From positions 1 through 30,644 of IMG/VR virus record IMGVR_UViG_3300006867_000048: 30,644 nucleotides of DNA; one strand, written 5' to 3'. This document shows positions 3,952 through 19,695 of this stretch, in pieces. A program made the position numbers and the translations under genes. Each line of letters begins with the position of its first letter. Positions within the stretch are counted from its first letter, which is position 1. The notes under the pieces are model-generated. The model saw only the letters and a program-made list of their open reading frames with translations, searched no databases and was not told the DNA's origin. The stretch is from a virus. Taxonomy: Duplodnaviria > Caudoviricetes.

Positions 3952-3980
3952 TGGTAATTATGGAAATTGCCAGTTTTTTT
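3952..3980 (+). terminator. intrinsic terminator
   Basis: TGGTAATT-ATGGA-AATTGCCA stem followed by a T-run; end of + strand block. Confidence 0.5.
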
Positions 3981-4096
3981 AGACCCACTGAAATAATCAC
4001 AGGAACGAAGATTTTGAGATGTTTGGCGCGACGGTGGGACTACTGTTCGGATGAACAGTAGTTTGGGGCTAGTATTTGCGCCACGGATCTTGATAT

Positions 4097-4336
4097 TTAG
4101 TTATTACCGCTGGTTTCAATCCGATTAGATGCAGTAACGGGCTTGAGATATTCAATCTCACCCACCTGAATAATATGTGCTGTAATTTTCCCCTCATCTT
4201 GAATGAACGATTTAAAGCTCTGGACTCCGCTCTCTTCATCACAGAAAAATTCGAAAGCAGTTGCAAGTTGAGTTAGAGTTTCGCGCACTTCATCCATAGT
4301 GCCGATTCCCGAAATTGTAACAGTATAGTTTTTCAT
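4097..4336 (-). CDS. hypothetical protein (start revised to MKNYTV at 4336)
   Basis: Track start is a TTG inside a hairpin; first ATG is at 4336. Confidence 0.65.
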   Translation of the reverse strand: MKNYTVTISGIGTMDEVRETLTQLATAFEFFCDEESGVQSFKSFIQDEGKITAHIIQVGEIEYLKPVTASNRIETSGNN

Positions 4337-4391
4337 TTTAAAAAGGAGAGTGAGGGGCAAGTCAGAGACTCACCCCTCACCACGATGACAA

Positions 4392-5354
4392 TTAACAAAA
4401 GAGTTTTCTGAACAGTGTTTGACCTTTATCGGTCAGCATTCTTTTCTGATCGATTGTTAGAAGATTTTTCTTTTTGAGCATTAACTCAAATTCCTGTTGC
4501 AAAGCGCCACGCGTGCACTCAGTTTTCGCGGATAAGTCGTTCAATGTTTGAGCGCCGAATTGTCCAATGATTTGAACGATTTGAAGCTCAGTATCATTCA
4601 ATCCATAGTCGTGGATTCCCATTGAATAACGGAATTGATCCCACACAGTTTGATTGATATACGTTTCGCCTGTCGCGTGAGCAAAATGCCGCAAGTGATC
4701 AGCCATCTCGAAAGATGAACGAGGATGACCGCGCAGCACACTCATGATTTCCTCACATACTTCACCACTTACTGACAGATCCTCATCCATTTCCTCAAGT
4801 TTTTGTTCGAAGATAAGATATAACTCTTCATCGCTATATGGGGCAATCGTCAATTTGGTGAAACGATCTTGAAGCGCACCATCCAATTTCTGAACGTCGG
4901 TTGTCGCGAAGAACATGCAGTATTCGCGGAAGTCGAAAGGAATTGTGACCTCACCAACGTCGCGCCGATCATAACGAAAGCGCCGAACCGGATTACTGGA
5001 TTTATTGCACACTGTCAAAAGCATCGCTTGCACTTTCTTAGGCAACATTTGGCACTCATCGATAAACAGGGCCGCGTTATCGTCGCGCATTTTCGGATAC
5101 CAGATATCGAAAAACGTATCGATGTTTTTGATTACCGAAGCATTCACTTCAACAAGTGGACGCTCGCGCCCTTCTGGATCAATCAACTCTTTGCAATATT
5201 CATTGATCATGTAAGTTTTACCGTAACCACGAGGGGCGTTAAAACAAAGGAAGGGATTCATACCAGTCTTCTGTAAAGAAGATTTGTAGATTTGAAACTT
5301 CCGCTTTAAGATATCCTGACCAATCACGTGGTCCATAAATGTGTCATCGTTCAT
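4392..5354 (-). CDS. ruvB: Holliday junction branch-migration AAA+ ATPase RuvB-like
   Basis: VIGQ, Walker A PRGYGKT, Walker B LFIDE, ATT, LQDRF, RGHPR, C-terminal winged helix ending RMLTDKG; RuvB-sized (320 aa). Confidence 0.85.
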   Translation of the reverse strand: MNDDTFMDHVIGQDILKRKFQIYKSSLQKTGMNPFLCFNAPRGYGKTYMINEYCKELIDPEGRERPLVEVNASVIKNIDTFFDIWYPKMRDDNAALFIDECQMLPKKVQAMLLTVCNKSSNPVRRFRYDRRDVGEVTIPFDFREYCMFFATTDVQKLDGALQDRFTKLTIAPYSDEELYLIFEQKLEEMDEDLSVSGEVCEEIMSVLRGHPRSSFEMADHLRHFAHATGETYINQTVWDQFRYSMGIHDYGLNDTELQIVQIIGQFGAQTLNDLSAKTECTRGALQQEFELMLKKKNLLTIDQKRMLTDKGQTLFRKLFC

Positions 5355-5360
5355 AATGTA

Positions 5361-5401
5361 ACTATAGTGTTAATTGTTAATTTTGCAATAGCGCGATTGC
5401 G
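5361..5401 (-). promoter_or_regulatory. leaderless promoter of ruvB
   Basis: CG box 5392-5401; TTGCAA-16 bp-TATAGT-6 nt-ATG(5354). Confidence 0.75.
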
Positions 5402-5740
5402 TTATCCTAAGAATTCATCAACAGCATCGATTTCGCCGCTATGAACTAATTTCTCTTCTTCTTCAAGGTTATATTCGTAATTTGCTTCCTCCCATAATTC
5501 GCAAGCTTCAGAATTGACATCTTCCACGCAATCCCAAAATTCTTTTACTTCTATAGGGTATTCGAGCTTGTCTCGTGTCACTTCCGCATCACTGCCCTCC
5601 ACGATTGAGCCAACGGTTACACCGTCTTCCTCACATTGAATCCATGCGCCACAATCGGTGCCTTTATAGATTGCCTTTTCCGCTTGTGCAACGGTATCAA
5701 CGCCAATCTCGTCTAGTAGTTCTTGATTATTTTTTATCAT
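5402..5740 (-). CDS. acidic hypothetical protein (start revised to MIKNNQ at 5740)
   Basis: Track extension overlaps upstream gene; KGTDCGAWI...VGSIVEGSDAE core, very D/E-rich. Confidence 0.75.
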   Translation of the reverse strand: MIKNNQELLDEIGVDTVAQAEKAIYKGTDCGAWIQCEEDGVTVGSIVEGSDAEVTRDKLEYPIEVKEFWDCVEDVNSEACELWEEANYEYNLEEEEKLVHSGEIDAVDEFLG

Positions 5741-5786
5741 CTGTATAGTTGGGAAAAATAGACTATTATGCCTATCAATATTAGTA

Positions 5787-6482
5787 TTAACATATTTGTT
5801 TCTCTGCTGTTTTCTTCCTGCTACCATGCGCGGGAAAACCAACAACCTTACTATGCTGTTTTTGGCATAGTTCACAATCGATACATTGCACGTCATCGCG
5901 TATAGTCGCAGGACATACAACAATATCACCGTTTGTTTCGAAATCTTCGGGAACCACTGACACCACTGGCGCAATACCTAACGCTTTTAATTTTTTGGCG
6001 TGATCTGGACCATTGGCGCTAATGTTTACCGTGAAACCATGTTCATTAGCCATTTTAACATTTAACCGATTCCATTCGGCAACTGCTTCCTTTTCTGCGT
6101 TAGTATAGATATCACTTTTAACATCTTCCGCTAACATCGGATAATGAGTATAAGTAAATCCGCGCTTTCCTTTATTGGCGTTTACCAATTGCGCCAAACG
6201 TTTTGCATTGATCTTTTCATTGCTACCTTGCAAATCACCAGCTTGATTGTGCCGCCACAACTGATTAGGTTTAAGTGTCGTGATTGCATCGCAAAATTCT
6301 TGAAAGGTGGCAAAGCCATATTTTCCTTTAGTAACATTGCTCCAATGAATATTGATAGGACCACTTTCAGCGTAACACCCATTTCCTTTAAATGGGCAAG
6401 AAGCAGGACACGTATTTTTTGAACTCATAGAGACAGGTATTGGACCAGTCTTTTCGTTCATTGAGATTTTTTTCAAATGCAT
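5787..6482 (-). CDS. Cys-rich phage protein, gp88-like/radical-SAM-related (putative metal or Fe-S binding)
   Basis: NEKTG...TCPASCPFKGNGCYA, RHNQAGD, CPA...CIDCELC, GFPAHG; family recognised from memory. Confidence 0.65.
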   Translation of the reverse strand: MHLKKISMNEKTGPIPVSMSSKNTCPASCPFKGNGCYAESGPINIHWSNVTKGKYGFATFQEFCDAITTLKPNQLWRHNQAGDLQGSNEKINAKRLAQLVNANKGKRGFTYTHYPMLAEDVKSDIYTNAEKEAVAEWNRLNVKMANEHGFTVNISANGPDHAKKLKALGIAPVVSVVPEDFETNGDIVVCPATIRDDVQCIDCELCQKQHSKVVGFPAHGSRKKTAEKQIC

Positions 6483-6488
6483 GACAAC

Positions 6489-6569
6489 AGTATAGTTGAA
6501 AAAAGGAACATAGCAAATAATATATATACGCGATTGCGCTATAGACTTAGCGCCGAAATAGAGTAGTAT
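6489..6569. promoter_or_regulatory. divergent leaderless promoter pair sharing one CG box
   Basis: Minus: TTGCTA-16-TATACT-6-ATG(6482); plus: TAGACT-16-TAGTAT-6-ATG(6576); CGCGATTGCG at 6529-6538. Confidence 0.7.
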
Positions 6570-6575
6570 ATATAC

Positions 6576-6791
6576 ATGACAAAACCGATAGTTAAAAATA
6601 AGTGGATACTTCGTGACGCCAAAACTAATGAGCCTATTATGCAGGGTTCAACCGTGAAGGACTTTCGTGGCGACGAACTTTTTGTGGATGGTGGTGCGCC
6701 ACCACACAAAGAAGGATCAACGGGACGCGTTTATACTAGTCGTGGAAGCTTTTTTCCAACAGTGATTGGCGCTAAGTGGGTAAAGATCTAA
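6576..6791 (+). CDS. hypothetical phage protein
   Basis: DFRG...PPHKEGSTGRVY...FFPTVIGAKW; own promoter. Confidence 0.8.
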   Translation: MTKPIVKNKWILRDAKTNEPIMQGSTVKDFRGDELFVDGGAPPHKEGSTGRVYTSRGSFFPTVIGAKWVKI

Positions 6792-6881
6792 GTTTTTTAC
6801 AAGTTTCTGTAATAAGTAGAAATAAGGCGGGATCACGTATCCCGTCACACCCCCACGGTGGGGCTACTGTTCAAATGAACA

Positions 6882-6950
6882 GTGCCGAACCCCCTTTCGA
6901 GGATTCGGCACAGGTTGGAGGGGCGCGGCCACTCATTTCCGCGCCCCTCC
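6882..6950. terminator. two adjacent GC-rich hairpins at a convergent junction
   Basis: GTGCCGAA..TTCGGCAC (6882-6911) and GGAGGGGCGCGG/CCGCGCCCCTCC 12-bp stem (6917-6950). Confidence 0.6.
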
Positions 6951-6960
6951 TGATCTGTTA

Positions 6961-7206
6961 CTACCACCTAACAAAATTTTGTTCAATCCTTTCAGGAATC
7001 ACCTCACGAAACTTTGATGATTCTTTGGTTGGGCGATTGGTTTCTGGATCAACATCGAACACCATTAGTTGAATGTTTCCATTTTCCGTATCGCCCACCT
7101 TCTTATCAAGAATCCAGTGTCGTGTGGCACCATCCTTTTTGGCCCGATAGATAAGGTGTCTGCGCTTTGTTGCACGCACCAATTGATTAAAAAGTTGTGG
7201 TATCAT
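6961..7206 (-). CDS. small WYL/SH3-like beta-barrel protein
   Basis: IYRAKKDGATR...LMVFD...KFREVIPERI resembles the WYL pattern; TAATG coupling. Confidence 0.55.
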   Translation of the reverse strand: MIPQLFNQLVRATKRRHLIYRAKKDGATRHWILDKKVGDTENGNIQLMVFDVDPETNRPTKESSKFREVIPERIEQNFVRW

Positions 7207-7403
7207 TATTTTTTGAATTTGAATCTCATCTCGGCAGTTTCAAGTGACTGAAAGTTTTCCACTTTCGGCACTCCGACTTCATTGCTCAGATTCGAGCGAG
7301 TATATGTCCTGATGCAACATGCTTTAGGATCAAGAATGAATGTTTTGTTTCGACTGTGCTTACGCTTAGTCCCGTCTGGATTGGTAGTAACTGGTGTTAT
7401 CAT
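7206..7403 (-). CDS. hypothetical protein
   Basis: ATGA/TAATG coupling on both sides. Confidence 0.7.
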   Translation of the reverse strand: MITPVTTNPDGTKRKHSRNKTFILDPKACCIRTYTRSNLSNEVGVPKVENFQSLETAEMRFKFKK

Positions 7404-7795
7404 ATCGCTAACTTAGCGTATTTCGGTTGATTGTCAAATATTTTGTCAATTTCTTTTCGAGTTATCCATTCTCCCTTGTAACAATAAAAATCGCTTACAG
7501 TGGCAACGTAACCCTCTTCTGTATATACTGCATGGACGATAAGGCAGATAGAAGATTTATATTTTGTGTCAAATTGGGTGTCTTGTGGTGTTAGATAATA
7601 TTCGTCTCGTTCAGTTGGGTCAAATTCGTCGTGTCCTTCTATAGCATAATTACCGACTGCGGTAATTGCCATCACACCAATGTTTCCATTAAATGTGTTT
7701 ATACCTTCTTTAACAGGTTCACCGTTAATGTGGGTAATGCGGGGAATCAGTTCTGTTTCTGATTCCCCGCATGGGTCAAACATCACGAATGCCAT
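7400..7795 (-). CDS. hypothetical protein
   Basis: 131 aa; abuts upstream stop. Confidence 0.75.
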   Translation of the reverse strand: MAFVMFDPCGESETELIPRITHINGEPVKEGINTFNGNIGVMAITAVGNYAIEGHDEFDPTERDEYYLTPQDTQFDTKYKSSICLIVHAVYTEEGYVATVSDFYCYKGEWITRKEIDKIFDNQPKYAKLAI

Positions 7796-8038
7796 TTATC
7801 CGCCACGCTGTTCACGTTCCCACTGAGCCAACTGCGAAGACAATTGTTTGATTGCCGTGCGCCCAATGTTAATGGTTCCTGTCGTGAAAATCACACCGCA
7901 TTCGCTTTCGGTATGACCTGTAATATCACAAATCTGTTCCTGATTGTGATTGACTGCGAGAGTCGTGGAAGATTGTTTCTTACCACGCTTTTGATTTTCG
8001 TTTGTGCTCGTCACTTGTGGAGTATCAGTTGTATTCAT
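7796..8038 (-). CDS. hypothetical protein
   Basis: First gene of unit; promoter TTGCAA(8087-8092)-16-TATACT(8065-8070). Confidence 0.75.
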   Translation of the reverse strand: MNTTDTPQVTSTNENQKRGKKQSSTTLAVNHNQEQICDITGHTESECGVIFTTGTINIGRTAIKQLSSQLAQWEREQRGG

Positions 8039-8206
8039 AATAGGTTGTTTATCTTAACAACAACAGTATAGCGCCAAATCAGTCGGTTGCAAGTTTTTTT
8101 GGCATCAGTTTAATAACGCAAATACGTTAGTTGACCAACTACTGTTCATGTGCTCACGGTGGCGCTACTGTTCAAATGAACAGTGGGGGTTTCGCCTTGC
8201 TACCCT

Positions 8207-8518
8207 TTATAAAATTTGACTGTGTTCTACATTACCATCTTTTGTATGAACGATAATTTTATATTCTTTCTCGCCATCGTCAGTAATGAATGCCTGATGA
8301 CTCATCGGCACACCACAATAGGGACAATGACGATAAGGAATTGAAGTTTGTTGGATGTTACTGATCTTTAACTCCTTTACTTCCATGATTGCGCGGTGTT
8401 CGTCTGAATTCACACCATAAATAGGCGCGAAATCTTCAATTTCTCCATAAATGTCTTTAGCGAGAAAAACATCCTCTTTCTCAAAGGCTAATCCGATAGT
8501 GTGGTCGCAATCTTTCAT
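8207..8518 (-). CDS. hypothetical Zn-binding protein
   Basis: CDH...HCPYCG; leaderless promoter TTGTAA-16-TAATAT-6-ATG. Confidence 0.75.
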   Translation of the reverse strand: MKDCDHTIGLAFEKEDVFLAKDIYGEIEDFAPIYGVNSDEHRAIMEVKELKISNIQQTSIPYRHCPYCGVPMSHQAFITDDGEKEYKIIVHTKDGNVEHSQIL

Positions 8519-8637
8519 GTATATATATTAGCGCCAAAAAAGAAGATTACAATGGCGCGATTGCGCTATATTTCAAGTAAGAAAGCTGTTGCAATTAAGT
8601 TGCGGCATGATATAGTAGTAACAGAAAGATAATAGCA

Positions 8638-8817
8638 ATGAAGCCAAAACAACAAAAACAAGAAGAAGCAGATCAACGGCAGAGCGAACATGATCAACTT
8701 TCACCTCAGGAGAAACTTGAAAAACTTGATCGTAATGGTCATGTTGCAAAGAAGGAACGCGCCAAACTGCAACGATAGATTAACTCTAAAGCAAAGCGTA
8801 GAAAGGGTAAAAAGTAA
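8638..8817 (+). pseudogene. small basic protein with in-frame TAG at 8776-8778
   Basis: MKPKQQKQEEADQRQ...KERAKLQR*INSKAKRRKGKK*; final TAA overlaps next ATG; promoter TTGCAA-16-TATAGT upstream. Confidence 0.55.
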
Positions 8818-8993
8818 TGTTAACAACTCTTATAGTGTGCGCGGCAGTAATGCCATGTTCATTCATAGTCTTCGGGCGAATGAGTTATAAAAACATAACT
8901 TCACAAATCTTTACCCTCCTACTTAAAACTTCGGCGCTAATTACAATTGTATTATCTGCCATTCACTTTTTAAAACTAATAAACATAATATAG
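8817..8993 (+). CDS. small membrane protein (58 aa, not in ORF track)
   Basis: MLTTLIVCAAVMPCSFIVFG...; two hydrophobic stretches; ends 2 nt before next ATG. Confidence 0.6.
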   Translation: MLTTLIVCAAVMPCSFIVFGRMSYKNITSQIFTLLLKTSALITIVLSAIHFLKLINII

Positions 8994-8995
8994 CC

Positions 8996-9187
8996 ATGAG
9001 CGAAGTAGATAAGCTAAGAAAGGCATACGAGACGGGTAAGATCTGTGGAATCACAGATACTAACGGAACAAAATACAATGGTCAAGTAACAGCAGTCGGA
9101 CAAGTGACTGTATTGGTGCATGATCGAAACAAGCGGCAAAATGTCGCGTTGCGACACAACGAAATTGATTCGGTGCGTTGCGGTTAA
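8996..9187 (+). CDS. small protein, possibly Sm/Hfq-like fold
   Basis: Helix then GITDTNGTKYNGQVTAVGQVTVLV...LRHNEIDSV pattern. Confidence 0.55.
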   Translation: MSEVDKLRKAYETGKICGITDTNGTKYNGQVTAVGQVTVLVHDRNKRQNVALRHNEIDSVRCG

Positions 9188-9216
9188 TCTCCAGTTTTTT
9201 CTTCATAGTCATAATA

Positions 9217-9250
9217 AAGAGGGGCACGTCAAATAAGGCGTGTCCCTTTT
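9217..9250 (+). terminator. intrinsic terminator
   Basis: AAAGAGGGGCACGTC-AAATAA-GGCGTGTCCCTTTT. Confidence 0.7.
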
Positions 9251-9416
9251 CGTGTCATGGTGCGACGGTGGGCGCACTGTTCAAATGAACACTGGCGCAT
9301 GTGCGCCATAGAAGATCAAAAAAACTTCCACAAAGAACTTGCTTTTAATTATTTTGGCTTTATACTCTTGTATAGCAAAGATGCTATTACTTATTAAAAT
9401 CTAATTATCATATATC

Positions 9417-10451
9417 ATGGCTAATCTAATCTACGGAAATCAACTTGATCGTTCACTTCTTAGCAACGTTCACACTCCCGATCCTGTTGGGACTCACTAC
9501 CCCATTGATCACAACATGTTTCTTGAACTGATCGAAAAGGCATTGGATGATGCTGGTTTCATCGTTCACGCTAACGAGGTGGTTGTTTCGCGGAATTTTC
9601 CCTCTGCGGCAGAAATCGAATTCGTCGCTAACAATATGGAAACGGCGACATTCGCGGAAGGAATCGGACAACGCGCTTTCGGTGGTCTTTCGATCACTTC
9701 GGAAGATCTCGCGGGAACTGAACGTCAACTTGTTTGTGGCTGGCGTAATTCACACGACAAATCTTTCAAAAGCGCCATCTGTATCGGTTCGCGCATGATG
9801 GTGTGTGATAACTTGTGTTTTTCATCTGAGCGCGTGATTGGTCGCAAGCACACCAAAAACATTGAACGCGACCTTCCTGCTGTCATTTCAAAAATCGTCT
9901 ATGGACTGGTGGCAGAATGGAGCAACATGGAAACGAGAATCAAAGCTTACAAGCTTGTCAGGTTGACTCGTGAAACTGCTGCGGATCTTGTATTCAAGTT
10001 GAAGGAACACAAAGCAATTGCGCCCACTAAGTGTGCAACAGTTTTTGACCTTTGGTTGGAACCTGCGCTTGCAGCTAAGGGAATGATTGATAAAACTGCG
10101 TTTATCGATGAAAATGATTCTTACGATGAGGACGCATACAAAGCGGCGATTGCGAGCAAAGAACATGAACTTGAGTCAGCATTTGGAAAAGGTGTTTCTC
10201 TTTGGGGATTGTATAACGCATTCACCGAATCACTTAAAGGCGGCGACTTTTCAAAGCACGCGACTAGAACAATGGCAGCACAAGCTCTTTTTGATTCTAT
10301 TGCAGGAGTCGATATTAAGGCGCAGTCTGATGTTGAAGTCGAGGGCGAAGACGAAAACGGTGTTCATTACGATGTAGAAACCACTACGGAAGACGTGACC
10401 GACAGACTCGCAGAAACCGAAGAAGAAGAAGAGCACAGCTTTAGCTGGTAG
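9417..10451 (+). CDS. DUF932-like protein with acidic C-terminal tail
   Basis: THYPIDH, WRNSHDKS, GSRMMVCDNLCF, RKHT, SLWGLYNAFTESLK; promoter TTGCTT(9339)-16-TATACT(9361). Confidence 0.8.
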   Translation: MANLIYGNQLDRSLLSNVHTPDPVGTHYPIDHNMFLELIEKALDDAGFIVHANEVVVSRNFPSAAEIEFVANNMETATFAEGIGQRAFGGLSITSEDLAGTERQLVCGWRNSHDKSFKSAICIGSRMMVCDNLCFSSERVIGRKHTKNIERDLPAVISKIVYGLVAEWSNMETRIKAYKLVRLTRETAADLVFKLKEHKAIAPTKCATVFDLWLEPALAAKGMIDKTAFIDENDSYDEDAYKAAIASKEHELESAFGKGVSLWGLYNAFTESLKGGDFSKHATRTMAAQALFDSIAGVDIKAQSDVEVEGEDENGVHYDVETTTEDVTDRLAETEEEEEHSFSW

Positions 10452-10480
10452 GTTGCCAGTTTTTTAACCAAATACGCAAT

Positions 10481-10510
10481 AAAGGACTGTTCGAAAGAAC
10501 AGTCCTTTTT
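10481..10510 (+). terminator. intrinsic terminator with GAAA loop
   Basis: AAAGGACTGTTC-GAAA-GAACAGTCCTTTTT. Confidence 0.8.
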
Positions 10511-10574
10511 GTTTGGCGCGGGTGGGACCACTGTTCAAATGAACAGTAGTCAGGGTATATCTTATACCACAGAT

Positions 10575-10766
10575 TTAGGGTTTGTCAACTGCTTTTTTAA
10601 TCAATCCCCTCTCAATTAAAAGCTCAACTTCATTGTTAAAAGCATCAATGTTATTGGAAATTCCAGACTCTACAAAATCATAGAGCATTACCATCATATC
10701 TTCAACAGTCATATTTTCTATAACAAGTTGAGTAACCAACTCCACGTTTTCTTTACTATACTTCAT
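10575..10766 (-). CDS. hypothetical protein
   Basis: ATGA overlap with upstream gene. Confidence 0.7.
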   Translation of the reverse strand: MKYSKENVELVTQLVIENMTVEDMMVMLYDFVESGISNNIDAFNNEVELLIERGLIKKAVDKP

Positions 10767-10996
10767 TTTACTACTGTAATCCTATTCTCTTTAGTGTCAA
10801 AGCATACTTTGAATTTTGGGCCAATAAGATTAAATTTATTTTCTATATGTTCAAAAAGTTGACATTCAAACCATACTTTGTTAATGTCGGTGATTATATG
10901 AGTTATATTATAATGGTATCCAATAGTATGAGGATACATCGTTTTTAACTGTGTGGATACAGTTAACTTGAGAGATTCAAGATCTTTAATCATCAT
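10763..10996 (-). CDS. hypothetical protein (start revised to MMIKDL)
   Basis: Track extension lies inside the upstream gene. Confidence 0.65.
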   Translation of the reverse strand: MMIKDLESLKLTVSTQLKTMYPHTIGYHYNITHIITDINKVWFECQLFEHIENKFNLIGPKFKVCFDTKENRITVVK

Positions 10997-11198
10997 CAGT
11001 TCCGAAAGTGAGATCCTGACAATGTTGGCACATGCCGCTGATGCGATATTCGCGCCGACTTTCATCATCGCGGAAGTCGTCTGCATCCCTACCACATATT
11101 GCACATTGATTAGCACGGATTACTGCTTTTCTGTCGATTCCAAATTGGTTGGAAATGTAGTGGTCGATTTCTGGTGATTTTTCGGTTGGTTCTGCCAT
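10986..11198 (-). CDS. small Zn-finger-like protein, paralog of 13192-13422
   Basis: MAEPTEKSPEID...CAICG...EYRISGMCQHCQD; leaderless promoter TTGCAT-16-TACAAT-6-ATG(11198). Confidence 0.85.
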   Translation of the reverse strand: MAEPTEKSPEIDHYISNQFGIDRKAVIRANQCAICGRDADDFRDDESRREYRISGMCQHCQDLTFGTDDD

Positions 11199-11295
11199 AC
11201 CCATATTGTAGGCTCAAATAAGAAATATGCAAATAAACATCTAACGTGATCGCGTATCACACAGTGGCACGGTGGCACTACTGTTCAAACGAACA

Positions 11296-11326
11296 GTGGC
11301 GTGATCGCGTTACACGATCACGCCAC
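11296..11326. other. 12-bp inverted repeat built from CG boxes
   Basis: GTGGCGTGATCG-CGTTACA-CGATCACGCCAC. Confidence 0.7.
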
Positions 11327-11412
11327 GTTCTACCTACTTACCTACTTTTAAAATTCGTGTCCAAAAAAGGAAACTACTGCAATTAAGATTATTGTTGTAC
11401 AGATTATAGAAG

Positions 11413-11727
11413 TCATTGTGAGATAATCCTTTCTGCTTCTTGTTCTAAGTCGCCCACCAATTTCTGATCAAACGTGATGCGCGTGCCCTGCGTTGACTTG
11501 AAGCCCGTGACATTAGATAGCACTTTGCGGCTACCCAATGAATGCGAATACTCATGTATTTCACCGCCAGAAAGATACGCACCGTCGTCAGTAATTTCTT
11601 CAATTTTATACTCACAAGATATAGCAATTTCATCATATTGCAATGAAGGATTATACTGATGTGATGGCGCGATCACGTCCCATCTATCAGTGCCTTTCAC
11701 GATTTCGATATAGATATCAGTTTCCAT
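11413..11727 (-). CDS. hypothetical protein
   Basis: Own promoter TTGCTT-16-TATAAT. Confidence 0.75.
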   Translation of the reverse strand: METDIYIEIVKGTDRWDVIAPSHQYNPSLQYDEIAISCEYKIEEITDDGAYLSGGEIHEYSHSLGSRKVLSNVTGFKSTQGTRITFDQKLVGDLEQEAERIISQ

Positions 11728-11854
11728 ATTTAACCATATTATAACTTTAAATACGAGATAAGCAAATAATCATCTAACGTGATCGCGTATAGCAGCGGCA
11801 CGGGAGGACTACTGTTCAGATGAACAGTAGTTTGGATGAACAGTAGTTCGGATG

Positions 11855-12067: not shown

Positions 12068-12807
12068 TACCTTATTTCGGGATAAAATTTTCCGATTACC
12101 CCGTTATTTAATTTTGCGAGCACGTAACCGTGATTAACTGACCATGGCGCAAAAACAAAATCAATTTCTTTATTTAGTTGATAAGATGGGTTTGATGAAT
12201 TACCAACTTGAAATTCTTCGTCAAATTCATAATTATCCATAATTTCTTCGCCATCAATAGATGCATCACAAAGATTCCACCCTACTACGGTATCAATAGG
12301 TAATGAATAATCGTAATCAGTACATTTCAAAAACACTGGAAAACTATAACCGCCGCGAATGTCGCAACCCGTATGGATATAAACAACTAAAATAGCCGAA
12401 TCTGAATAAATCCAATCATCACATTCGGGATTGGGATCATCCCATATTTCCCAAACATAATCTTGCGATAAATCGTTTTCGTTATTATAGGTATTATCCC
12501 GCGCTTTCAATTCATAACCCTTTAATTCACAAAAAGCTTGTCCACATTCAAACCATGATTGGGTTAAATCAGCGGCGAATTCATCAAATTGATTTTGTAT
12601 ATAATCAAGATGTTCACACTTTTCGGAGAGAAACGCCACTGTTTCAATTGTGGCCATTACTTCGTTCTCGCCCCACAATTCAATTTTTATTGCAGGATCA
12701 TTTTCGGAAATCGGTCCTTTTTCGTAATGTCTGCCATAATGATCACCACTATCTAAAAAGTGACGCCCCGAATTATATCTTGCTGCCTCTGCTAATTTTT
12801 TAATCAT
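12067..12807 (-). CDS. acidic hypothetical phage protein
   Basis: GRHFLDSG, NTYNNENDLSQ, IHTGCDIRGGY motifs; leaderless promoter TTGAAA-16-TATAGT-5-ATG. Confidence 0.8.
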   Translation of the reverse strand: MIKKLAEAARYNSGRHFLDSGDHYGRHYEKGPISENDPAIKIELWGENEVMATIETVAFLSEKCEHLDYIQNQFDEFAADLTQSWFECGQAFCELKGYELKARDNTYNNENDLSQDYVWEIWDDPNPECDDWIYSDSAILVVYIHTGCDIRGGYSFPVFLKCTDYDYSLPIDTVVGWNLCDASIDGEEIMDNYEFDEEFQVGNSSNPSYQLNKEIDFVFAPWSVNHGYVLAKLNNGVIGKFYPEIR

Positions 12808-12964
12808 GTAAAACTATAGCGCCAAAATCTTTATTTTCAAGTTATAGATTTGAAATACGGATGGCGCAAATACGTATGGCGCAATCGCGCCATCGCGCCA
12901 TCGGCGCGGGGGCTACTGTTCAAATGAACAGTAGTTTGTTATACGAATATTACCTTCCCCTCTT

Positions 12965-13195
12965 CTAATCCTCGTTTTGTATTTCAGATAATTCAAGGTT
13001 AGTATTGCGTCGAATTACGGTATAATCTTCACTATCTAGCAGGAGATCACAACCATTAGCGTTGACAATGAACACAGCACCTCTTTCTTGCCAGTTGGGT
13101 TGATTCGTGGCATTAATCGCCCTGTATTTACCCGCAGGGAATTTTTGATCGGTTCCCAACAGTTTAAAGTCGCAATTTGTTTGAATAGTCATCAT
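12965..13195 (-). CDS. hypothetical protein (start revised to 13195)
   Basis: ATGA overlap with the 13192 stop. Confidence 0.7.
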   Translation of the reverse strand: MMTIQTNCDFKLLGTDQKFPAGKYRAINATNQPNWQERGAVFIVNANGCDLLLDSEDYTVIRRNTNLELSEIQNED

Positions 13196-13422
13196 ACTCC
13201 AAAAACTGAATCTTGACATTCTTGACACATGCCACTTATACGATATTCGTGCCGACTCTCATTATCTCGAAAGTCATCTATCTTTCCAGATTCCACTTCA
13301 ATGGTGACATCTTTGCCGCATGTTGCACATTTATCGGCGCTAATTGATTCTTTGCGATCTATCCCTAATTCGTTTTTTAGGAAGTTATCGATTTCTGGTG
13401 ATTTTTCGGTCGGTTCTGCCAT
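13192..13422 (-). CDS. small Zn-finger-like protein, paralog of 10986-11198
   Basis: MAEPTEKSPEID...CATCG...EYRISGMCQECQD; leaderless promoter TTGCCT-16-TACAAT-6-ATG. Confidence 0.85.
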   Translation of the reverse strand: MAEPTEKSPEIDNFLKNELGIDRKESISADKCATCGKDVTIEVESGKIDDFRDNESRHEYRISGMCQECQDSVFGV

Positions 13423-13530
13423 ATATATATTGTAGCTTTAAATCAGAAATAGGCAAATAAACACTGTAACGCAATCGCGTATCATAGTCGCACGGTGGTT
13501 GCACTGTTCAAATGAACAGTGGGTTATTCA

Positions 13531-13785
13531 TTAGTATCTATAATCTTCAAGTGCTCCGTCAGCAACTTCGTCAGCAATTGCTTCTTTCGCTTTTTCCTGA
13601 AGAGATTCTTCATCAATGGTTGACCCATCTGTTGAAGACATTTCAAGGATTTCAATTTCGTCATCGTCGTCTGGTTCCATTGGACATCCGAATTCATCTC
13701 GTCCGCCCTTCATTCCTGCTGTTACTTCAGCATCAACAAGAATTTCAGTATCATTGTCATCGTAGATATAAGTAGAAACGATCAT
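13531..13785 (-). CDS. highly acidic small protein, paralog of 16419-16673
   Basis: About 27 of 84 residues D/E; near-identical partner. Confidence 0.85.
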   Translation of the reverse strand: MIVSTYIYDDNDTEILVDAEVTAGMKGGRDEFGCPMEPDDDDEIEILEMSSTDGSTIDEESLQEKAKEAIADEVADGALEDYRY

Positions 13786-13947
13786 TTAGTATAGTAGTTT
13801 AGGAGTGGGTAATTGCAACTGAATAAAATCATTTTTTTCTTCAATTGGTGGTAGTGGTTTAATCATTACATAGATACCAGTTACATGGTAAGTCATGATC
13901 AACATGAGGAACAACATTAGTGAGCGATAAAAGACTAGCCAGTTCAT
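13786..13947 (-). CDS. small membrane protein (start revised to MNWLVF), paralog of 16834-16989
   Basis: TTGTAT-16-TAAACT-7-ATG; shared HVxGIYxMIK motif. Confidence 0.7.
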   Translation of the reverse strand: MNWLVFYRSLMLFLMLIMTYHVTGIYVMIKPLPPIEEKNDFIQLQLPTPKLLY

Positions 13948-14074
13948 AATGTGTAGTTTATTCGCAAATACGCCAAATACAAGTAACGTGATCACGTATA
14001 GCAACAGTTGCACGGTGGGCGCACTGTTCAGATGAACACCTACGCATATCCGTATCACATGATTGAGTAGGTCA

Positions 14075-14105
14075 GGGATCACGCGAATCCGTATCGCGTG
14101 ATCCC
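14075..14105. terminator. 12-bp hairpin downstream of the 14122 gene
   Basis: GGGATCACGCGA-ATCCGTA-TCGCGTGATCCC. Confidence 0.55.
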
Positions 14106-14121
14106 GTCCCTTGTGTCATGA

Positions 14122-15279
14122 TTAAAGTGGGTTGTTCGTGGCGATCTCCATTTGACCGACAAGCTGACGAAACAAGAATTGCTGAAAACCACGCGTTTCG
14201 TCGCGATGTCCTGTTGTTAGGTGGTAATGTTCTTCCAACACAGTTTGAACAAGATCGTGCAAACCGTGATCGAAAGCTTTGTCAGTAAGGAAGATTTTAT
14301 CGTCTTTGGCATAACCATAAAGATCGTCGCCTTCTCTTGTTTTGACGAATTCGATTGGCGCTTCAACTTCAACGCCAGCACCTTTTAAAAACTCAATAGC
14401 TTTCGTTAACTTAATCTGTTGAAACTGTGTTGGCTCGAAAGATTCGCGTTGGATTTCGCCACGACGATTATTATGGATATTTGCCAGATTATTTGCAAGT
14501 TTGCGACAATTCACAAGCGCCAATTCAATGGCATCAAGAAACTTTTCGCTTACTGGCGTATTACTCCAAATTGCGTGATAATTTGGATAATTGGAAGTTA
14601 ACGCTGTTTGAATGACAGCAGAATTTTCGCTCTGCGCTAACAAACAAGCAATTTGCTGATCTGCGCAATTAATGGTTCTGTCTTCTGTCAGATCGGCGTC
14701 AGCAAAATTTACGCTTAAAGGAATGTCCATTGTGCCAACCAAAACACCTTTACAGTAAGCGTTGCCTTTACTGCAATCAAGAATCTGATTGTCATTAATG
14801 GTTTCAACAACTGGAATGTTAGCATCAAGGAAGTATTTATCCCGCTCATTCCAACAAGTTTCAATTTCAGGATGTTTAACCGTAACAACGGTATCGAAAC
14901 CATCGATAGGCTTATTCGTGGAATCTCCACCTTCGTCAAGTGCATTAGAATGAAGCTCACGGAACCATTGCCATGCTTTCCAATGTTTTCCATAGTCCGT
15001 GCAGTATGCAAGCTTTTCACCATTGCACAGTATCACGTCAAAGTCTTTTCCACGGATATTCTGAGATTCCGTCGTGAAAATGTATGTGTAAACTTCATTG
15101 TCTGTGCCACGTGTTTTGATTGAAATGTTGCCGCCTGTGCGGAGAATGCCAGCAATGGCGTATTTCAACCCTGTGCCGAATTTACCAATTTTCGAATCGT
15201 CAGCTTTGACACTAACACCCATCATGCGAAACGACTCTTCATTGAGAGTCCCGTTATTGTAGAATCTGATTTTTTTCAT
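14122..15279 (-). CDS. GHKL (HATPase_c-like) ATPase with C-terminal zincin-like motif
   Basis: IGKFGTGLKYAIA, RELHSNALD, C-terminal VLEEHYH...DETRGFQQFL. Confidence 0.7.
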   Translation of the reverse strand: MKKIRFYNNGTLNEESFRMMGVSVKADDSKIGKFGTGLKYAIAGILRTGGNISIKTRGTDNEVYTYIFTTESQNIRGKDFDVILCNGEKLAYCTDYGKHWKAWQWFRELHSNALDEGGDSTNKPIDGFDTVVTVKHPEIETCWNERDKYFLDANIPVVETINDNQILDCSKGNAYCKGVLVGTMDIPLSVNFADADLTEDRTINCADQQIACLLAQSENSAVIQTALTSNYPNYHAIWSNTPVSEKFLDAIELALVNCRKLANNLANIHNNRRGEIQRESFEPTQFQQIKLTKAIEFLKGAGVEVEAPIEFVKTREGDDLYGYAKDDKIFLTDKAFDHGLHDLVQTVLEEHYHLTTGHRDETRGFQQFLFRQLVGQMEIATNNPL

Positions 15280-15328
15280 GACATAGACATATTACCTCAT
15301 TCAACCGATTTTACAACTATTTGTTTGG

Positions 15329-15418
15329 CGTGAATCCGTGATACGCAAATCCGTATGGCGCAAATCCGTAAGGCTCAAATGCAAATAGCGCAAATACGTA
15401 ATACGCACATCCGTAGTG
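15329..15418. repeat. degenerate 15-bp tandem repeat (CGCAAATCCGTATGG) x6
   Basis: Units start at 15329, 15344, 15359, 15374, 15389, 15404. Confidence 0.85.
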
Positions 15419-15493
15419 TTCATCTGAACAGTGCCACGGTGGGACTACTGTTCAGATGAACACGGGGTTCATCTGAACAGCATTGAGAGGTGA

Positions 15494-15877
15494 TTAAGCG
15501 GCGAAGTAATCTTTCAGAATTGGCCTTAGCCAATCTGAGTTTTCACCGCTGAATCCTGTTATGAAATTGTTTTCAATCTTGATGAGAGTATCGCATTTCC
15601 CCGCACTGAAAACGTGAAGCATACAGTAATCAGCGAATACCGCATTGCTGATTAAAAAATCTTCGTCACCTGTTAGGAACAAGCCGCGTGCGGAGATTCC
15701 GAAAACTTCGCCGCCAGCTTTACTGATCGCATCGAAGATTTTCGTAACGTGCTCAACGTCATTGAGTAAACCATCAACCATGTTGGCGGCATCAATAGCC
15801 GCTTCGATTTGCTCAACTTCGGCAGGCAAAAGGTCATTGATATTGTGAACTGGAATTGTTGTAGTAGAGTTATTCAT
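15494..15877 (-). CDS. hypothetical protein (start revised to MNNSTT)
   Basis: TTGTGT-16-TATAAT-9-ATG; track extension runs through the promoter. Confidence 0.75.
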   Translation of the reverse strand: MNNSTTTIPVHNINDLLPAEVEQIEAAIDAANMVDGLLNDVEHVTKIFDAISKAGGEVFGISARGLFLTGDEDFLISNAVFADYCMLHVFSAGKCDTLIKIENNFITGFSGENSDWLRPILKDYFAA

Positions 15878-15994
15878 AACACCAATATTATACCGCTTTT
15901 TGCTAAATACACAAATAACACCTATAGCGCAATCGCGTATCACAGTGGCACGGTGGTGCCACTGTTCAGATGAACAGTGGTATGGATGGCGCGA

Positions 15995-16303
15995 TTACGG
16001 GATCTGCACCTCACGCACATGCGCCAGTTCAAACATGCGGTGATCAACAGCTAATTCCTCTAGTGATTCCAACCATTCTTCTTCAGACACAGCAGACACA
16101 GGATACTCAATCTGATAATGTGAAGAGGAACATTCTAGCTCCCCCACTGCGCCCATAGCGTCCCACTCACGTGAGTGGTCGTGCATACGCACACGGTATG
16201 TAAGTCCACCTTTGGGTTTCCAGTAATGTTTAGGTGCGGCTGCTGTATCGTCGTGAGCGCCATAGTTTTCAACGATTTGAGTAGTGACAATGTAGGTTTT
16301 CAT
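15995..16303 (-). CDS. hypothetical phage protein (start revised to MKTYIV)
   Basis: TQIVENYGAHD...YWKPKGG...EYP motif. Confidence 0.8.
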   Translation of the reverse strand: MKTYIVTTQIVENYGAHDDTAAAPKHYWKPKGGLTYRVRMHDHSREWDAMGAVGELECSSSHYQIEYPVSAVSEEEWLESLEELAVDHRMFELAHVREVQIP

Positions 16304-16418
16304 AACTCCATAGAATAAACGCAAATAGGGCAAATACAGGGTACGTGATCACGTATAGTAGTGGCGCACGGCCGCACTACTGTTCAGATGAACACGGGGT
16401 TCATCTGAACAGCGGGGT

Positions 16419-16673
16419 CTAATAGCGATAATCTTCTAATGCGCCTTCGGTTATTTCGTCAAGAATTGCTTCTTTAGCTTTGCTTTGCAATCCTTCCTCA
16501 TCGAATGATGAGCCACAGGTTGAAGACATTTCGAGGATTTCCACTTCTGGTTCATCGTCTGGTTCCATTTGGCGACCGAATTCATCGCGTCCACCTTTCA
16601 TCCCCATAGAGACTTCTGCATCCACGAGAATTTCGGTGTCGTCATCACTATATATGTATGTTGAAACTATCAT
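16419..16673 (-). CDS. highly acidic small protein, paralog of 13531-13785
   Basis: MIVSTYIYSDDDTEILVDAEV...GALEDYRY. Confidence 0.85.
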   Translation of the reverse strand: MIVSTYIYSDDDTEILVDAEVSMGMKGGRDEFGRQMEPDDEPEVEILEMSSTCGSSFDEEGLQSKAKEAILDEITEGALEDYRY

Positions 16674-16831
16674 TTTACAAACTTGTATTTTAACTTTTCA
16701 AGGAAATTGCAAACCTTAACGGTCCAATCGTGATGAAAGCCATCCTGACCTTCAATGATCTGATCACCGTTTCAGTGGCGTGAGTGCCACCAATACCAAA
16801 CTTTATCCAATGTTCGTTCTAATTTTCTCAT
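16670..16831 (-). pseudogene. 53-codon gene with in-frame TGA at 16772-16774
   Basis: MRKLERTLDKVWYWWHSRH*NGDQIIEGQDGFHHDWTVKVCNFLEKLKYKFVK*; final TGA overlaps next ATG. Confidence 0.55.
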
Positions 16832-16833
16832 GA

Positions 16834-16989
16834 CTAGTATAGTTTTCCGTGATAGAATTTCGGTGCCGCAGGAATTGGAATCTTTTTTTTCACTGGTGCA
16901 GGTTTATTTTTTATCATCATGTAAATGCCGATTACATGGAAGTTAATGCTGATCAACAGACCCGCAATTAGAGAGAGTAAGAATTTCAT
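16834..16989 (-). CDS. small membrane protein (start revised to MKFLLS), paralog of 13786-13947
   Basis: TTGTGT-16-CATAAT-9-ATG. Confidence 0.7.
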   Translation of the reverse strand: MKFLLSLIAGLLISINFHVIGIYMMIKNKPAPVKKKIPIPAAPKFYHGKLY

Positions 16990-17105
16990 GACACCAATAT
17001 TATGCCACAATTCGACAAATACACAAATAACGCGTATGGCGCAATCGCGTATGGCGCAATCGCGACGTGGTTTGGGGTGTTCAGATGAACAGTGCCCCCA
17101 TGTGA

Positions 17106-17291
17106 TTAAAGCCACTTCATTCGCTCAGTATTAAACACTCTCTCATAGCGTTTTCTCGGTGCTGGATTTGTTGCATATTGAACACCTAAACATATGAGAA
17201 CACCATTTTCCCATTTAGGTTCTTCATCGGTAACAATGAACTCTTTGACTCTTCCTTTTTTGTTTTTGTGAGTAAAACGTTTTCCTTTCAT
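17106..17291 (-). CDS. small basic protein, paralog of 17991-18203
   Basis: KGRVKEFIV...YATNPAPRKRYERVF; TTGCCT-16-TATAAT-8-ATG. Confidence 0.85.
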   Translation of the reverse strand: MKGKRFTHKNKKGRVKEFIVTDEEPKWENGVLICLGVQYATNPAPRKRYERVFNTERMKWL

Positions 17292-17416
17292 GACGCCACA
17301 TTATACGGCATTGAGCTAAATAGGCAAATAACGCGATTGCGTAGTGTTCACCTGAACAGTAACGAGGACAGGGGTGTTCAGATGAACAGTGGTGCTCACC
17401 TGAACAGTGCCCTTTT

Positions 17417-17473
17417 CTAGTGGGTAGCGATAATTATCGCTATTATGATAAATGCGATAACTACGATAATCAT
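17417..17473 (-). CDS. 18-aa hydrophobic micropeptide
   Basis: MIIVVIAFIIIAIIIATH; positional paralog at 19264-19317. Confidence 0.6.
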   Translation of the reverse strand: MIIVVIAFIIIAIIIATH

Positions 17474-17476
17474 GGA

Positions 17477-17764
17477 TTACATGATCTTTGTGGATTCCAT
17501 GGTAGGCTCAGAATCTACGACAATTCCGCTGTCTCTGGTGATGCTGAAATCTTCGTTGTCTATGGAATCACTGAGTTTTTTGGTAATTCCAGCTTTTACC
17601 ATTTCTGCCAGCTTTTGTAGTTGTTTTAGTTTTTTTAGTTCTTCCGCGTTTTTATCAACTTTCTCGTTAACTTTGGCAATTATGGAATCAATCTCTTCTT
17701 CAGTGATTTCACCCATGATGGCTCTTTCAGTGAGTTGATTGATTGTAGGTATTCGGTTGTTCAT
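17477..17764 (-). CDS. coiled-coil protein, paralog of 19327-19695
   Basis: PTINQ...KLSDSIDNED...SGIV...ESTKIM. Confidence 0.85.
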   Translation of the reverse strand: MNNRIPTINQLTERAIMGEITEEEIDSIIAKVNEKVDKNAEELKKLKQLQKLAEMVKAGITKKLSDSIDNEDFSITRDSGIVVDSEPTMESTKIM

Positions 17765-17990
17765 AGTGATTATGGTTTTTATATTATAGGTTTCGTAATT
17801 GGCATAGCTCTCATAGCTTTACCATATATACAGTATAGCACATATTTACCATAATGCAATAGCGCGTATGCGCCATGTTCAAATAGACAGTGCCAAATAG
17901 AGTAGTGTGCAGGTGAACAGTGTTCACCTGAACGTCTACAAGGGTGTTCGGATGAACAGTAGTGCTCTACTGTTCACCCAAACAGTGGGG

Positions 17991-18203
17991 TTATGCTACG
18001 GGCACGGGGCGGATTTCGATGGGTTTGATTTGCGCTCGTCTGAATTGGCGTGTGTATTGTTTGCGCGGAGCGGGATTTCCCGCGTATTCCACTTTGAGAG
18101 TGAGAGTGGCTTCGCTTTCCTTCACAGGCGTATCGTCTGATACGATGAAAGTTTTTGTTCTGCCTTTGGCATTGGTATATAAGAAGTATGTTCCTTTTTT
18201 CAT
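17991..18203 (-). CDS. small basic protein, paralog of 17106-17291
   Basis: KGRTKTFIV...YAGNPAPRKQYTRQF; TTGCCT-16-TATGAT-8-ATG. Confidence 0.85.
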   Translation of the reverse strand: MKKGTYFLYTNAKGRTKTFIVSDDTPVKESEATLTLKVEYAGNPAPRKQYTRQFRRAQIKPIEIRPVPVA

Positions 18204-18354
18204 GACTCCACATCATACCCTATCTGACCAAATAGGCAAATAACACGTATAGCACGATTGCGTAGTGTTCATTTGAACGTTGACACTACTGTTCATTTGA
18301 ACACTGGCACGATGACGCCATTGTGTCACTGTCTATGTGTGCTATACTGTTAAC

Positions 18355-18576
18355 ATGTACTTACTATTAGGATTATCACTGTTCACCATCTCAGTAGCTT
18401 GTTTTTGGACACTTGTTCACTTGCACAGTAGTAGAGATATAGAGGAATTACATCCAGTGTTATTTTGGACACTGTTGGTAATTACTGTTGTTCAAATTTG
18501 CGGCACTAATCTGGTGTTCGCATTACCACTGTTAATTTGTGGTATAGACCAGTTTTTTTGTATAGTGCTCAAATAG
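18355..18576 (+). CDS. hydrophobic 73-aa protein overlapping degenerate palindrome array
   Basis: CACGATGACG box, TTGTGT(18321)-16-TATACT(18343)-6-ATG(18355). Confidence 0.5.
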   Translation: MYLLLGLSLFTISVACFWTLVHLHSSRDIEELHPVLFWTLLVITVVQICGTNLVFALPLLICGIDQFFCIVLK

Positions 18577-18684
18577 ACATTACTGTGAGCCTGAACACTG
18601 TTCAGGCGAACGTTGACACTACTGTTCAGATGAACACCTGTGCCCATCTGAACAGTGTGCTATCCTCTAGCTAGTATGGGGGTT

Positions 18685-19023
18685 CTAGCTAGTATGGATA
18701 ACCCGACCTCTATGAAAAGTAAAGATTTCCCATTTATCATGAATTTTAACAAGAACATGACAGTCACAATGGGCATACCTACTATAATTTTCGGCGCTAG
18801 TCAAGTTCTTATCTTGAGTATAATTTCTATCATAGCCAAAACAACCGCCATCAGAACAGATACTATATTCCACAGATCCTTTCTGTAGTATCCATAATTT
18901 CCGTCCACAGTCCATATCAGTATGGTCTATCGAAAAACCAGAATTGTCAGGGTGCTCGGTGAGTGTTACATCTTCTATACTGATGATAGTAGATCCATTA
19001 GTTGCATTTTCAATAGTTTTCAT
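18685..19023 (-). CDS. hypothetical protein
   Basis: 112 aa; promoter TTGCAT-16-TACCTT upstream. Confidence 0.75.
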   Translation of the reverse strand: MKTIENATNGSTIISIEDVTLTEHPDNSGFSIDHTDMDCGRKLWILQKGSVEYSICSDGGCFGYDRNYTQDKNLTSAENYSRYAHCDCHVLVKIHDKWEIFTFHRGRVIHTS

Positions 19024-19263
19024 AAGAGTCGGTATTTTTAAGGTTGAGTAAGATTATCCTAACCTTACCATACATACAAGGTAGCACAGAATTACCATAA
19101 TGCAATGGCGCATATAGGCCATGTTCTAGTGAACACTGGTCAAATGAGTAGGTGTCAAATAGAGCACTGTTCAAGCGAACACTGTTCATCTGAACGGCTG
19201 TACTACTGTTCAGATGAACAGTAACGTCCACCTGAACAGTATGTGCTTATGGTATTTATGGCT

Positions 19264-19317
19264 TTAGCCAACCGCTACCACGATTGCGATCACTATGAAG
19301 ATTATGACTACTATCAT
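19264..19317 (-). CDS. 17-aa hydrophobic micropeptide
   Basis: MIVVIIFIVIAIVVAVG; positional paralog at 17417-17473. Confidence 0.6.
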   Translation of the reverse strand: MIVVIIFIVIAIVVAVG

Positions 19318-19326
19318 ATCTTCAAC

Positions 19327-19695
19327 CTACATGACTTTTGTGGATTCTTCGACAGTGTTCTCATGAACAGTGTCTTCGATTACGATGCCGGAATTCTTAG
19401 TCCAGTCGGTAGTCTGGAGATCTTCGTTGTCAATGCTTGCTGACAGTTTAGCCATGGCCATATCCAGCATATCCTGATAGGCAACATATTCCGACCTTTT
19501 GGCTTCGTTAAGCTTTATTTTCTCTTCGGCTTTATCGATCTTCGCCTGTTCTTTATCATTAAGTTCATCGAACCTTTCCAATTTGGCATCCAGTAATGTT
19601 TGGATTTGTTGATAGTCTGCCTCACTGTATTTTCCCTTAGCGTGAGAACCAGCGAATTGGTTGATAGTCGGCAGCTTAGTAATTTCAGATTTCAT
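19327..19695 (-). CDS. coiled-coil protein, paralog of 17477-17764
   Basis: LPTINQ...KLSASIDNED...SGIV...ESTKVM; promoter TTGCGA(19779-19784)-17-TATGAT(19756-19761). Confidence 0.85.
   Translation of the reverse strand: MKSEITKLPTINQFAGSHAKGKYSEADYQQIQTLLDAKLERFDELNDKEQAKIDKAEEKIKLNEAKRSEYVAYQDMLDMAMAKLSASIDNEDLQTTDWTKNSGIVIEDTVHENTVEESTKVM

Follow-up and report, generated by a model that had tools for sequence, protein, structure and literature searches.

An array of palindromes matching the Verrucomicrobiota LexA box in a large uncultured phage

In PhiCbK-like phages, binding sites for the host regulator CtrA are concentrated in the direct terminal repeats, and CtrA acts as an activator in what the source terms "lytic deferment" (PMC9437464). 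The host repressor LexA is co-opted by temperate phages, including GIL01, in which gp7 and gp6 take part (PMC6182141), and others listed in PMC9437464. The terminal repeat of phage T5 contains eight DnaA boxes in inverted repeats away from promoters, for which the preprint offers a model that is as yet untested (bioRxiv 10.1101/866236). Here, we analyzed a stretch of 30,644 nucleotides (i.e., the window; positions 1 to 30,644 of IMG/VR virus record IMGVR_UViG_3300006867_000048; Duplodnaviria, Caudoviricetes), which PHROG and Pfam scans identify as part of a large phage. It carries an array of TGTTC-N4-GAACA palindromes, for which host LexA is the most likely reader, as judged from sequence. 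In the literature that we could search (most subscription journals lay outside the search), no paper describing such an array was found, and text searches with the motif returned nothing relevant.

The window contains 25 perfect copies of TGTTC-N4-GAACA between 4044 and 19369, while shuffled sequences contain 0.02 copies on average and 1 at most. When one mismatch is allowed, the number of sites in the window increases to 36 (1.45 expected by chance), with 35 sites within the array region and 1 at 28947; the 10 one-mismatch sites of the array are all located at 15.4 to 19.2 kb. Positions 1 to 4.0 kb contain no site and the sequence past 19.4 kb contains no perfect site, nor is a perfect site present outside the array in two assemblies of the same phage (G001 and G091) that extend approximately 9 to 10 kb past the right end of the window. 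The thirds of the 2.85- to 20.1-kb region hold 3, 8, and 24 sites, respectively, and the density gradient is significant in a Kolmogorov-Smirnov (KS) test (p = 6e-6 with one mismatch allowed; 0.025 for perfect sites alone). The initial annotation had claimed at least 25 perfect palindromes in 15 kb, far above chance, as well as their confinement and density gradient, and all three claims are borne out. Although 75% of the region is coding, 24 of the 25 perfect sites and all 10 one-mismatch sites (i.e., 34/35) are intergenic, a count that rests on a hand-chosen gene list. The spacer is AGAT or AAAT in most sites of the array, and the sites at 4044, 6868, and 10532 are located at convergent junctions, as annotated previously. 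The features of the array are as follows.

4044..19369, unstranded: palindrome array of 25 perfect and 10 one-mismatch sites, predicted Verrucomicrobia-type LexA boxes (motif scan)
17345..19238, unstranded: dense end of the array, with doublets, triplets, and clusters (motif scan)
18266-18654, unstranded: block inside the dense end, with no credible gene in it
4044..4057, unstranded: box at a convergent junction, without a predicted promoter (the same applies at 6868 and 10532)

We take TGTTC-N4-GAACA to be the LexA box of Verrucomicrobia. This box was reportedly described by Erill, Campoy, Kilic, and Barbe in 2016 in Front Mol Biosci, with TGTTC-N4-GAACA as the motif. Tandem boxes are present at the start of Pfam-confirmed lexA genes in Limisphaera, Opitutaceae, and Opitutus genomes, and a comparison of sites indicated that the palindrome consensus of the array is the same as that upstream of Verrucomicrobiota lexA. 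We sampled 81 genomes of the phylum (51 with a LexA domain) and took the best 30 loci, 29 of which were from genomes not picked by motif. Of these 29 lexA loci, 10 carry a box in the 250 bp upstream, two without a mismatch and the others with one, and most of the box-less loci encode a visibly different recognition helix. The recA loci gave a perfect box at 2 of 10, two-mismatch sites at 4, and none at the remaining 4. Host and phage sites agree in their preferences outside the conserved arms (host vs phage): the spacer starts with A (80% vs 84%), with C/G adjoining the core (68% vs 98%) and A two bases outside the core (52% vs 84%). The motif, the 16-nt promoter spacer, and a LexA head encoded by a relative (see below) are indirect pointers to a host with this LexA type. 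We predict that the host phylum is very probably Verrucomicrobiota and that the boxes would quite probably be bound by a LexA-family DNA-binding head.

Three further observations concern the host genomes. In Verrucomicrobiales, a conserved double box covers the promoter beside an MFS transporter gene (eight loci). A composite of a half-box and CGCRATYGCG gave scattered single matches in 22 of 301 host genomes, for which the control was unsuitable. Two weak candidates for a spacer or prophage match to the phage (80 to 91% over 32 to 56 bp), obtained from 401 genomes of the phylum, were dismissed.

The array lies in a block of genes (4097 to 19695) that appear to be early genes, as their host-type promoters and gene size suggest. 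We compiled 19 predicted promoters (four of them hand-picked additions to the output of a script), which are predicted to be leaderless and without a Shine-Dalgarno sequence. None of the 19 is overlapped by a box, in agreement with the earlier observation that the sites lie upstream of, not over, the promoters. Fifteen have a box within 150 bp upstream, and in 10 of these 15 the box is located 46 to 51 bp before the -35 element, which random placement reproduced in 0 of 20,000 trials. The promoter-like sequences are of the type TTGnnn-N16-TAnnnT. Spacers of 16 nt outnumber those of 17 nt in the array region (10 vs 1), in a complete 179-kb relative of the phage (G002; 31 vs 4), and among boxed host promoters (9 vs 1; five of the nine represent one orthologous locus, and two represent one locus sampled twice). 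Representative elements are listed below.

11205..11295, minus strand: typical cassette, consisting of a box (11282), an ACGGTGG flank, CGYRATYRCG, a TTGCAT-N16-TACAAT promoter, and a leaderless start
9278..9366, plus strand: box 47 bp upstream of a TTGCTT-N16-TATACT promoter, with the ACGGTGG flank oriented as in the minus-strand cassettes
5392..17341, unstranded: second palindrome, CGYRATYRCG, 16 copies plus 1 at 1582 (17 vs 0.48 expected)

The cassette pattern, with the box 46 to 51 bp before the -35 element, repeats at 11765, 13456, 15914, 16333, 17026, 17327, 17859, and 18239. The second palindrome is mostly located between the box and the -35 element and is present at box-less promoters too; the arrangement Box-N3-CGYRATYRCG was found in the window and in a distant clade of related phages (G003 to G005). 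As a separate observation, the gaps of the boxes seem to form a helical ladder (i.e., 16-17, 25-26, 36-37, and 47-48), with a 50-52 group of G002 lying off it.

Contig depth over approximately 2.85 to 20.1 kb is 1.6 to 3.9 times that of the flanks in eight of eight runs (2.9, 2.1, 1.6, and 3.9 relative to 20.3 to 22.9 kb; 2.8, 2.3, 3.3, and 3.1 relative to 1 to 2.7 kb); these depths come from contigs and do not give copy numbers, and low-depth gaps inflate the ratios. Among other assemblies, three break off or begin at 20156, 20185, and 20228, whereas the window and a further one continue across this border. The simplest reading is that the region from 2.85 to 20.1 kb is a direct terminal repeat of approximately 17 kb, which we consider probable. 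Since the depth is raised across it in all of the runs, the array likely fills this long terminal repeat; since contig depth is not copy number, the repeat is something that we infer.

2850..20150, unstranded: probable direct terminal repeat of ~17 kb with approximate ends (depth step plus assembly ends)
19824..19889, minus strand: double C-run element (CCCCACCCC / CCCCTACCCC) immediately beyond the dense end, a candidate terminus or packaging signal

C-run-like elements are also present at the start of the early block in G003 to G005 and at position 7253 of G002. Four runs share a contig end at 19883, but a G run lies at the same place, and this end was not taken as evidence of a terminus. 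At the other side of the array, the convergent junction at 3661-3945 contains short direct repeats (TGTCGTAATAATACAAA twice and CACAGGATTTCAAATAAG twice), and a loose end common to three runs lies at 3685.

A double-box scan of viral contigs yielded 59 stretches. G003 to G005 and their close kin (~55% terminase identity) carry 4 to 8 boxes at the start of the early block amid different filler DNA, and the gap between box and -35 element in this clade is 46 to 49. G002 has 36% terminase identity and the same phoH-sigma-ERCC4-terminase order; all 60 of its perfect boxes are located within 8.3 to 41.6 kb (96 boxes when one mismatch is allowed), and boxes overlap only 2 of its 57 predicted promoters, both weak predictions. 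In a terminase tree of 21 rows (19 from the 80 loci), the window and G002 are on long branches. No integrase family was matched among 88 G002 proteins of at least 150 aa from 40 to 179 kb. Another palindrome, TCGTT-N7-AACGA with GTAAS/STTAC flanks, runs through the early block of G004 (C1:3055-13915), G005, and G126 in 13 copies (0.1 expected), often 46 to 66 bp upstream of promoters without a LexA box. G002 also encodes one protein with a bearing on the boxes.

G002:C1:7615-8094 (L182:1369-1848), minus strand: LexA head of 159 aa, in which a basic arm at the N terminus and a LexA DNA-binding domain were recognized but no S24 domain, adjoining the dense end

The gene for this head has a degenerate box over its start codon, and the protein is the sole member of its cluster. 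Its recognition helix (PSTRDIQ..GF.SQT.AM) scores best against Verrucomicrobia-type LexAs among 34 compared, and, of its matches that have a named relative or a boxed promoter, the best four are Verrucomicrobia-type LexAs; no close homologue and no PDB sequence match was found.

Two other phages were kept outside the family counts, as they contain many TGTTC-N4-GAACA sites with other spacers and have no protein matches to the window. One (G122; 80.6 kb, complete, GC-rich, unrelated) contains 27 copies distributed evenly over its genome, mostly with the asymmetric spacer CACA/TGTG, and the other contains an array of more than 40 GTTCCTAGGAAC palindromes (G123:C1:54000-66000). We also noted a family of 12 proteins of ~160 aa in which the LexA DNA-binding domain occurs twice in tandem and a peptidase domain is absent.

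We propose that host LexA would load on the boxes of the genome ends at infection and that, in its fixed slot upstream of the predicted leaderless promoters, it would act in cis, assisting rather than blocking RNA polymerase, alone or together with a factor that reads the neighboring CGYRATYRCG. DNA damage would cleave LexA and remove this input to the early promoters, so that early-gene output would be tied to the SOS state of the host. With two repeats, a virion would bring approximately 70 sites, which would incidentally titrate part of the LexA. The upstream slot, kept across lineages, suggests action in cis, and its constancy, together with promoter cores free of boxes, suggests assistance rather than blocking; ordinary repression is disfavored because no box overlaps a promoter. 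As a whole chain (i.e., LexA loaded on the genome ends, assisting early promoters from upstream, and lost on DNA damage), the proposal is tentative, with slightly less than an even chance of being correct. It retains part of the view in the initial annotation of a protein-loading array at the genome end, since the motif matches the lexA operator and depth is approximately twice that of the flanks, and it adds LexA, which had not been named. The claim that simple operator function does not suffice agrees with the promoterless boxes but under-rated a promoter-linked role, given that the fixed slot upstream of the -35 element is kept in distant relatives.

Several points weigh against this proposal. 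LexA is normally a repressor, and boxes in host promoters overlap the promoter core. Among the sampled lexA promoters, 19 of 29 lack a box as defined above, and no CRISPR-spacer or prophage match to the phage was found in the 401 genomes of the phylum. The promoter list was assembled by hand, and its entry at 16333 lacks a good -10 element; the ten constant-gap cases are not independent, because one cassette may have been copied. Three boxes have no promoter, one is inside a gene, and the dense clusters hold more sites than the control of promoters would require. In G002, the gap is 23 to 26 at 21 of 35 boxed promoters and 50 to 52 at 8 of 35, a slot unlike that of the window, and 22 of its 57 predicted promoters have no box, many of these being near consensus. 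Most relatives have no array: of 31 records selected by terminase, a single one contains at least three boxes. G101 (89% complete) is without any box, and no enriched palindrome was detected in G101, G103, and G108, whose early blocks are covered. Because of the 1/31 and of G101, the phage family does not need LexA input.

The best surviving alternative is that the array is purely a sink for LexA, in which decoys kept off the promoter cores would avoid self-repression and strip the host operators, inducing SOS repair or division arrest without damage. The idea of titration or sponging was already present in the initial annotation, and it is a live rival, kept alive by the site number, the clusters, and the promoterless copies, but it is doubtful and not the reading that we favor. 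The absence of overlap at all 19 promoters speaks for a sink, as does the wide variation in the number of sites between relatives. The 35 sites of the array (~70 with two repeats) and the 96 of G002 compare with 2 to 7 perfect copies in each of five host genomes (3.6 to 7.7 Mb), which were chosen for having boxes and whose weaker sites are uncounted. On these numbers, the repeats might bring about 10 times the host's perfect LexA operators, strip LexA, and induce SOS repair by DNA alone, a takeover that we likewise regard as doubtful. If true, it could rescue UV-damaged phage DNA in surface water, and the uncleavable LexA head of G002 would then reset the system. However, a sink needs no fixed spacing, while that of 46 to 51 bp is conserved between lineages and also holds at 9278 for a promoter on the other strand; autoregulation of lexA would be expected to buffer a few dozen sites; and G002 has, besides its uncleavable head, a UvsX-like recombinase of its own.

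That head points to a second alternative, in which the boxes would be read not by host LexA but by an uncleavable LexA head made by the phage, which would build up early and either switch the early region or coat it. The position of the 159-aa protein beside the dense end of G002 fits this reading, and gp6 of GIL01, a truncated LexA homologue, is described as an activator (PMC6182141). G002 is, however, the only viral locus found with the LexA-head profile, and no such head was detected among the ORFs of the window or in 41 other records (4/5 and 37/37; G091 and G448 also lack one), with approximately 40 kb of an estimated 170-kb genome searchable for this phage. A weak match in G001 proved to be a sigma factor. 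We regard this reading as unlikely.

A still less probable alternative is that the palindrome serves as an RNA terminator stem or a recombination handle within a copied promoter-terminator unit of the PeSL type. One cassette per intergenic space among ORFan genes recalls the PeSLs of T4-type phages (PMC4122927), some sites fold as 9- to 10-bp hairpins, and one perfect box forms a terminator-like stem.

10481..10508, plus strand: terminator-like hairpin with a GAAA loop, whose stem is the perfect box 10488 (-20.9 kcal/mol; z -7.5)

On the other hand, the palindrome does not extend past its 5-bp arms at 14 of 25 sites in the window and 51 of 60 sites in G002, and a T run is present at 1 of the 25; most palindromes thus lack the extension and T run of a stem-loop terminator upstream of a sigma-70 promoter. 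Separate GC-rich hairpins exist apart from the boxes, the arms are invariant across distant phages and do not covary, and no recombination joints or deletions were found in the contigs of eight runs, contigs being prone to lose rare variants. A closely related yet distinct strain, with which cassette shuffling could be compared, was not found. The sites behave as protein-binding operators rather than RNA stems, as far as their sequences indicate, with only 10488 doubling as a terminator stem.

Least probable of all is a structural coat on the genome end (i.e., end protection, injection pacing, or segregation, on the T5 model of DnaA boxes in a terminal repeat), which accords with an array confined to the high-depth region and densest beside the conserved C-run element but gained no support: the sites follow promoter geometry, the dense end lies upstream of the genes here and downstream of them in G002 (so that the annotated placement on first-entering DNA is not borne out either), no A1/A2-like genes were recognized in PHROG and Pfam scans of the window, and no membrane or motor function is known for LexA.

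The right side of the window encodes a terminase, a sigma factor, an ERCC4 nuclease, PhoH, ThyX, and an RNA-binding protein (PHROG/Pfam). The main genes outside and within the array are as follows.

25930..30644, plus strand: core module (PhoH, sigma factor, ERCC4 nuclease, and large terminase), which lies away from the array and served to find relatives
4097..19695, minus strand: ~33 genes, most of them small and very few with a family match (PHROG/Pfam)
4392-5354, in the minus-strand block: AAA ATPase
5787-6482, in the minus-strand block: DUF7227
9417-10451, plus strand: DUF932
14122-15279, in the minus-strand block: phrog_8203

Small genes of the array occur in similar pairs (17477-17764/19327-19695, 13531-13785/16419-16673, and 10986-11198/13192-13422), which is a pointer to cassette duplication. 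No informative look-alike was found for ORF 19327-19695, which adjoins the dense end; a megablast search of 4 to 20 kb against 50,697 cultured phage records gave no match; and none of 75 loci with distant homologues of a 385-aa gene contains a box. All 23 runs that hold this phage are labeled freshwater metagenome, with no RNA run among them. No left extension of the window was found among viral contigs, while one metagenome contig of the same phage reaches approximately 12 kb further left. To the right of the window, a cluster of 16 to 18 tRNA genes follows the terminase in two loci of the same phage. The pentamer GGCGC occurs approximately 94 times in the window and recurs just before -10 elements or start codons (e.g., 178, 2519, 6576, 8518, and 12807).

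Known LexA co-option involves temperate phages in which a few operators repress lytic promoters. Here, a large, apparently lytic phage family seems to tile a terminal repeat with 35 to 96 operators of the host type that stay clear of promoter cores. Such an arrangement implies that LexA works from upstream or, alternatively, that the DNA is a sink for the SOS repressor. Each reading, if true, would give phages a novel means of reading or rewiring the SOS response, and the motif itself allows the host of this family of uncultured phages to be predicted as Verrucomicrobiota.

Like the T5 repeat described in bioRxiv 10.1101/866236, the probable repeat described here carries host-protein sites in a long terminal repeat; the T5 boxes are far from promoters according to that preprint, and no T5 pre-early genes were recognized here. 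With the T4-type PeSLs, as PMC4122927 presents them, the array shares a repeated palindrome and promoter unit between variable ORFans; here, however, the palindrome is fixed in sequence and mostly too short for a terminator, and the transcripts are predicted to be leaderless and without a Shine-Dalgarno sequence. The likeness to GIL01 consists of host LexA boxes on phage DNA and of a truncated phage LexA homologue (here in G002). In GIL01, by the account in PMC6182141, a few boxes repress prophage lytic promoters and gp6 reads a sequence of its own, whereas here 35 to 96 boxes avoid the cores, and an operator of the GIL01 type over a promoter core or start was encountered at none of the 19 promoters. 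As in the PhiCbK-like phages described in PMC9437464, sites for a host regulator are intergenic, asymmetric, and located in the terminal repeats of large phages (the repeat here being probable), and they turn over between relatives; the regulator, signal, and host phylum are different, and the phage described here is known from sequence alone.

The box of Verrucomicrobia and that of the array are the same 14-bp palindrome, with the spacer and flank preferences of the host lexA and recA promoters. They differ in deployment: the host sites are few and lie over the promoter core, while those of the phage are numerous and stand upstream of the core.

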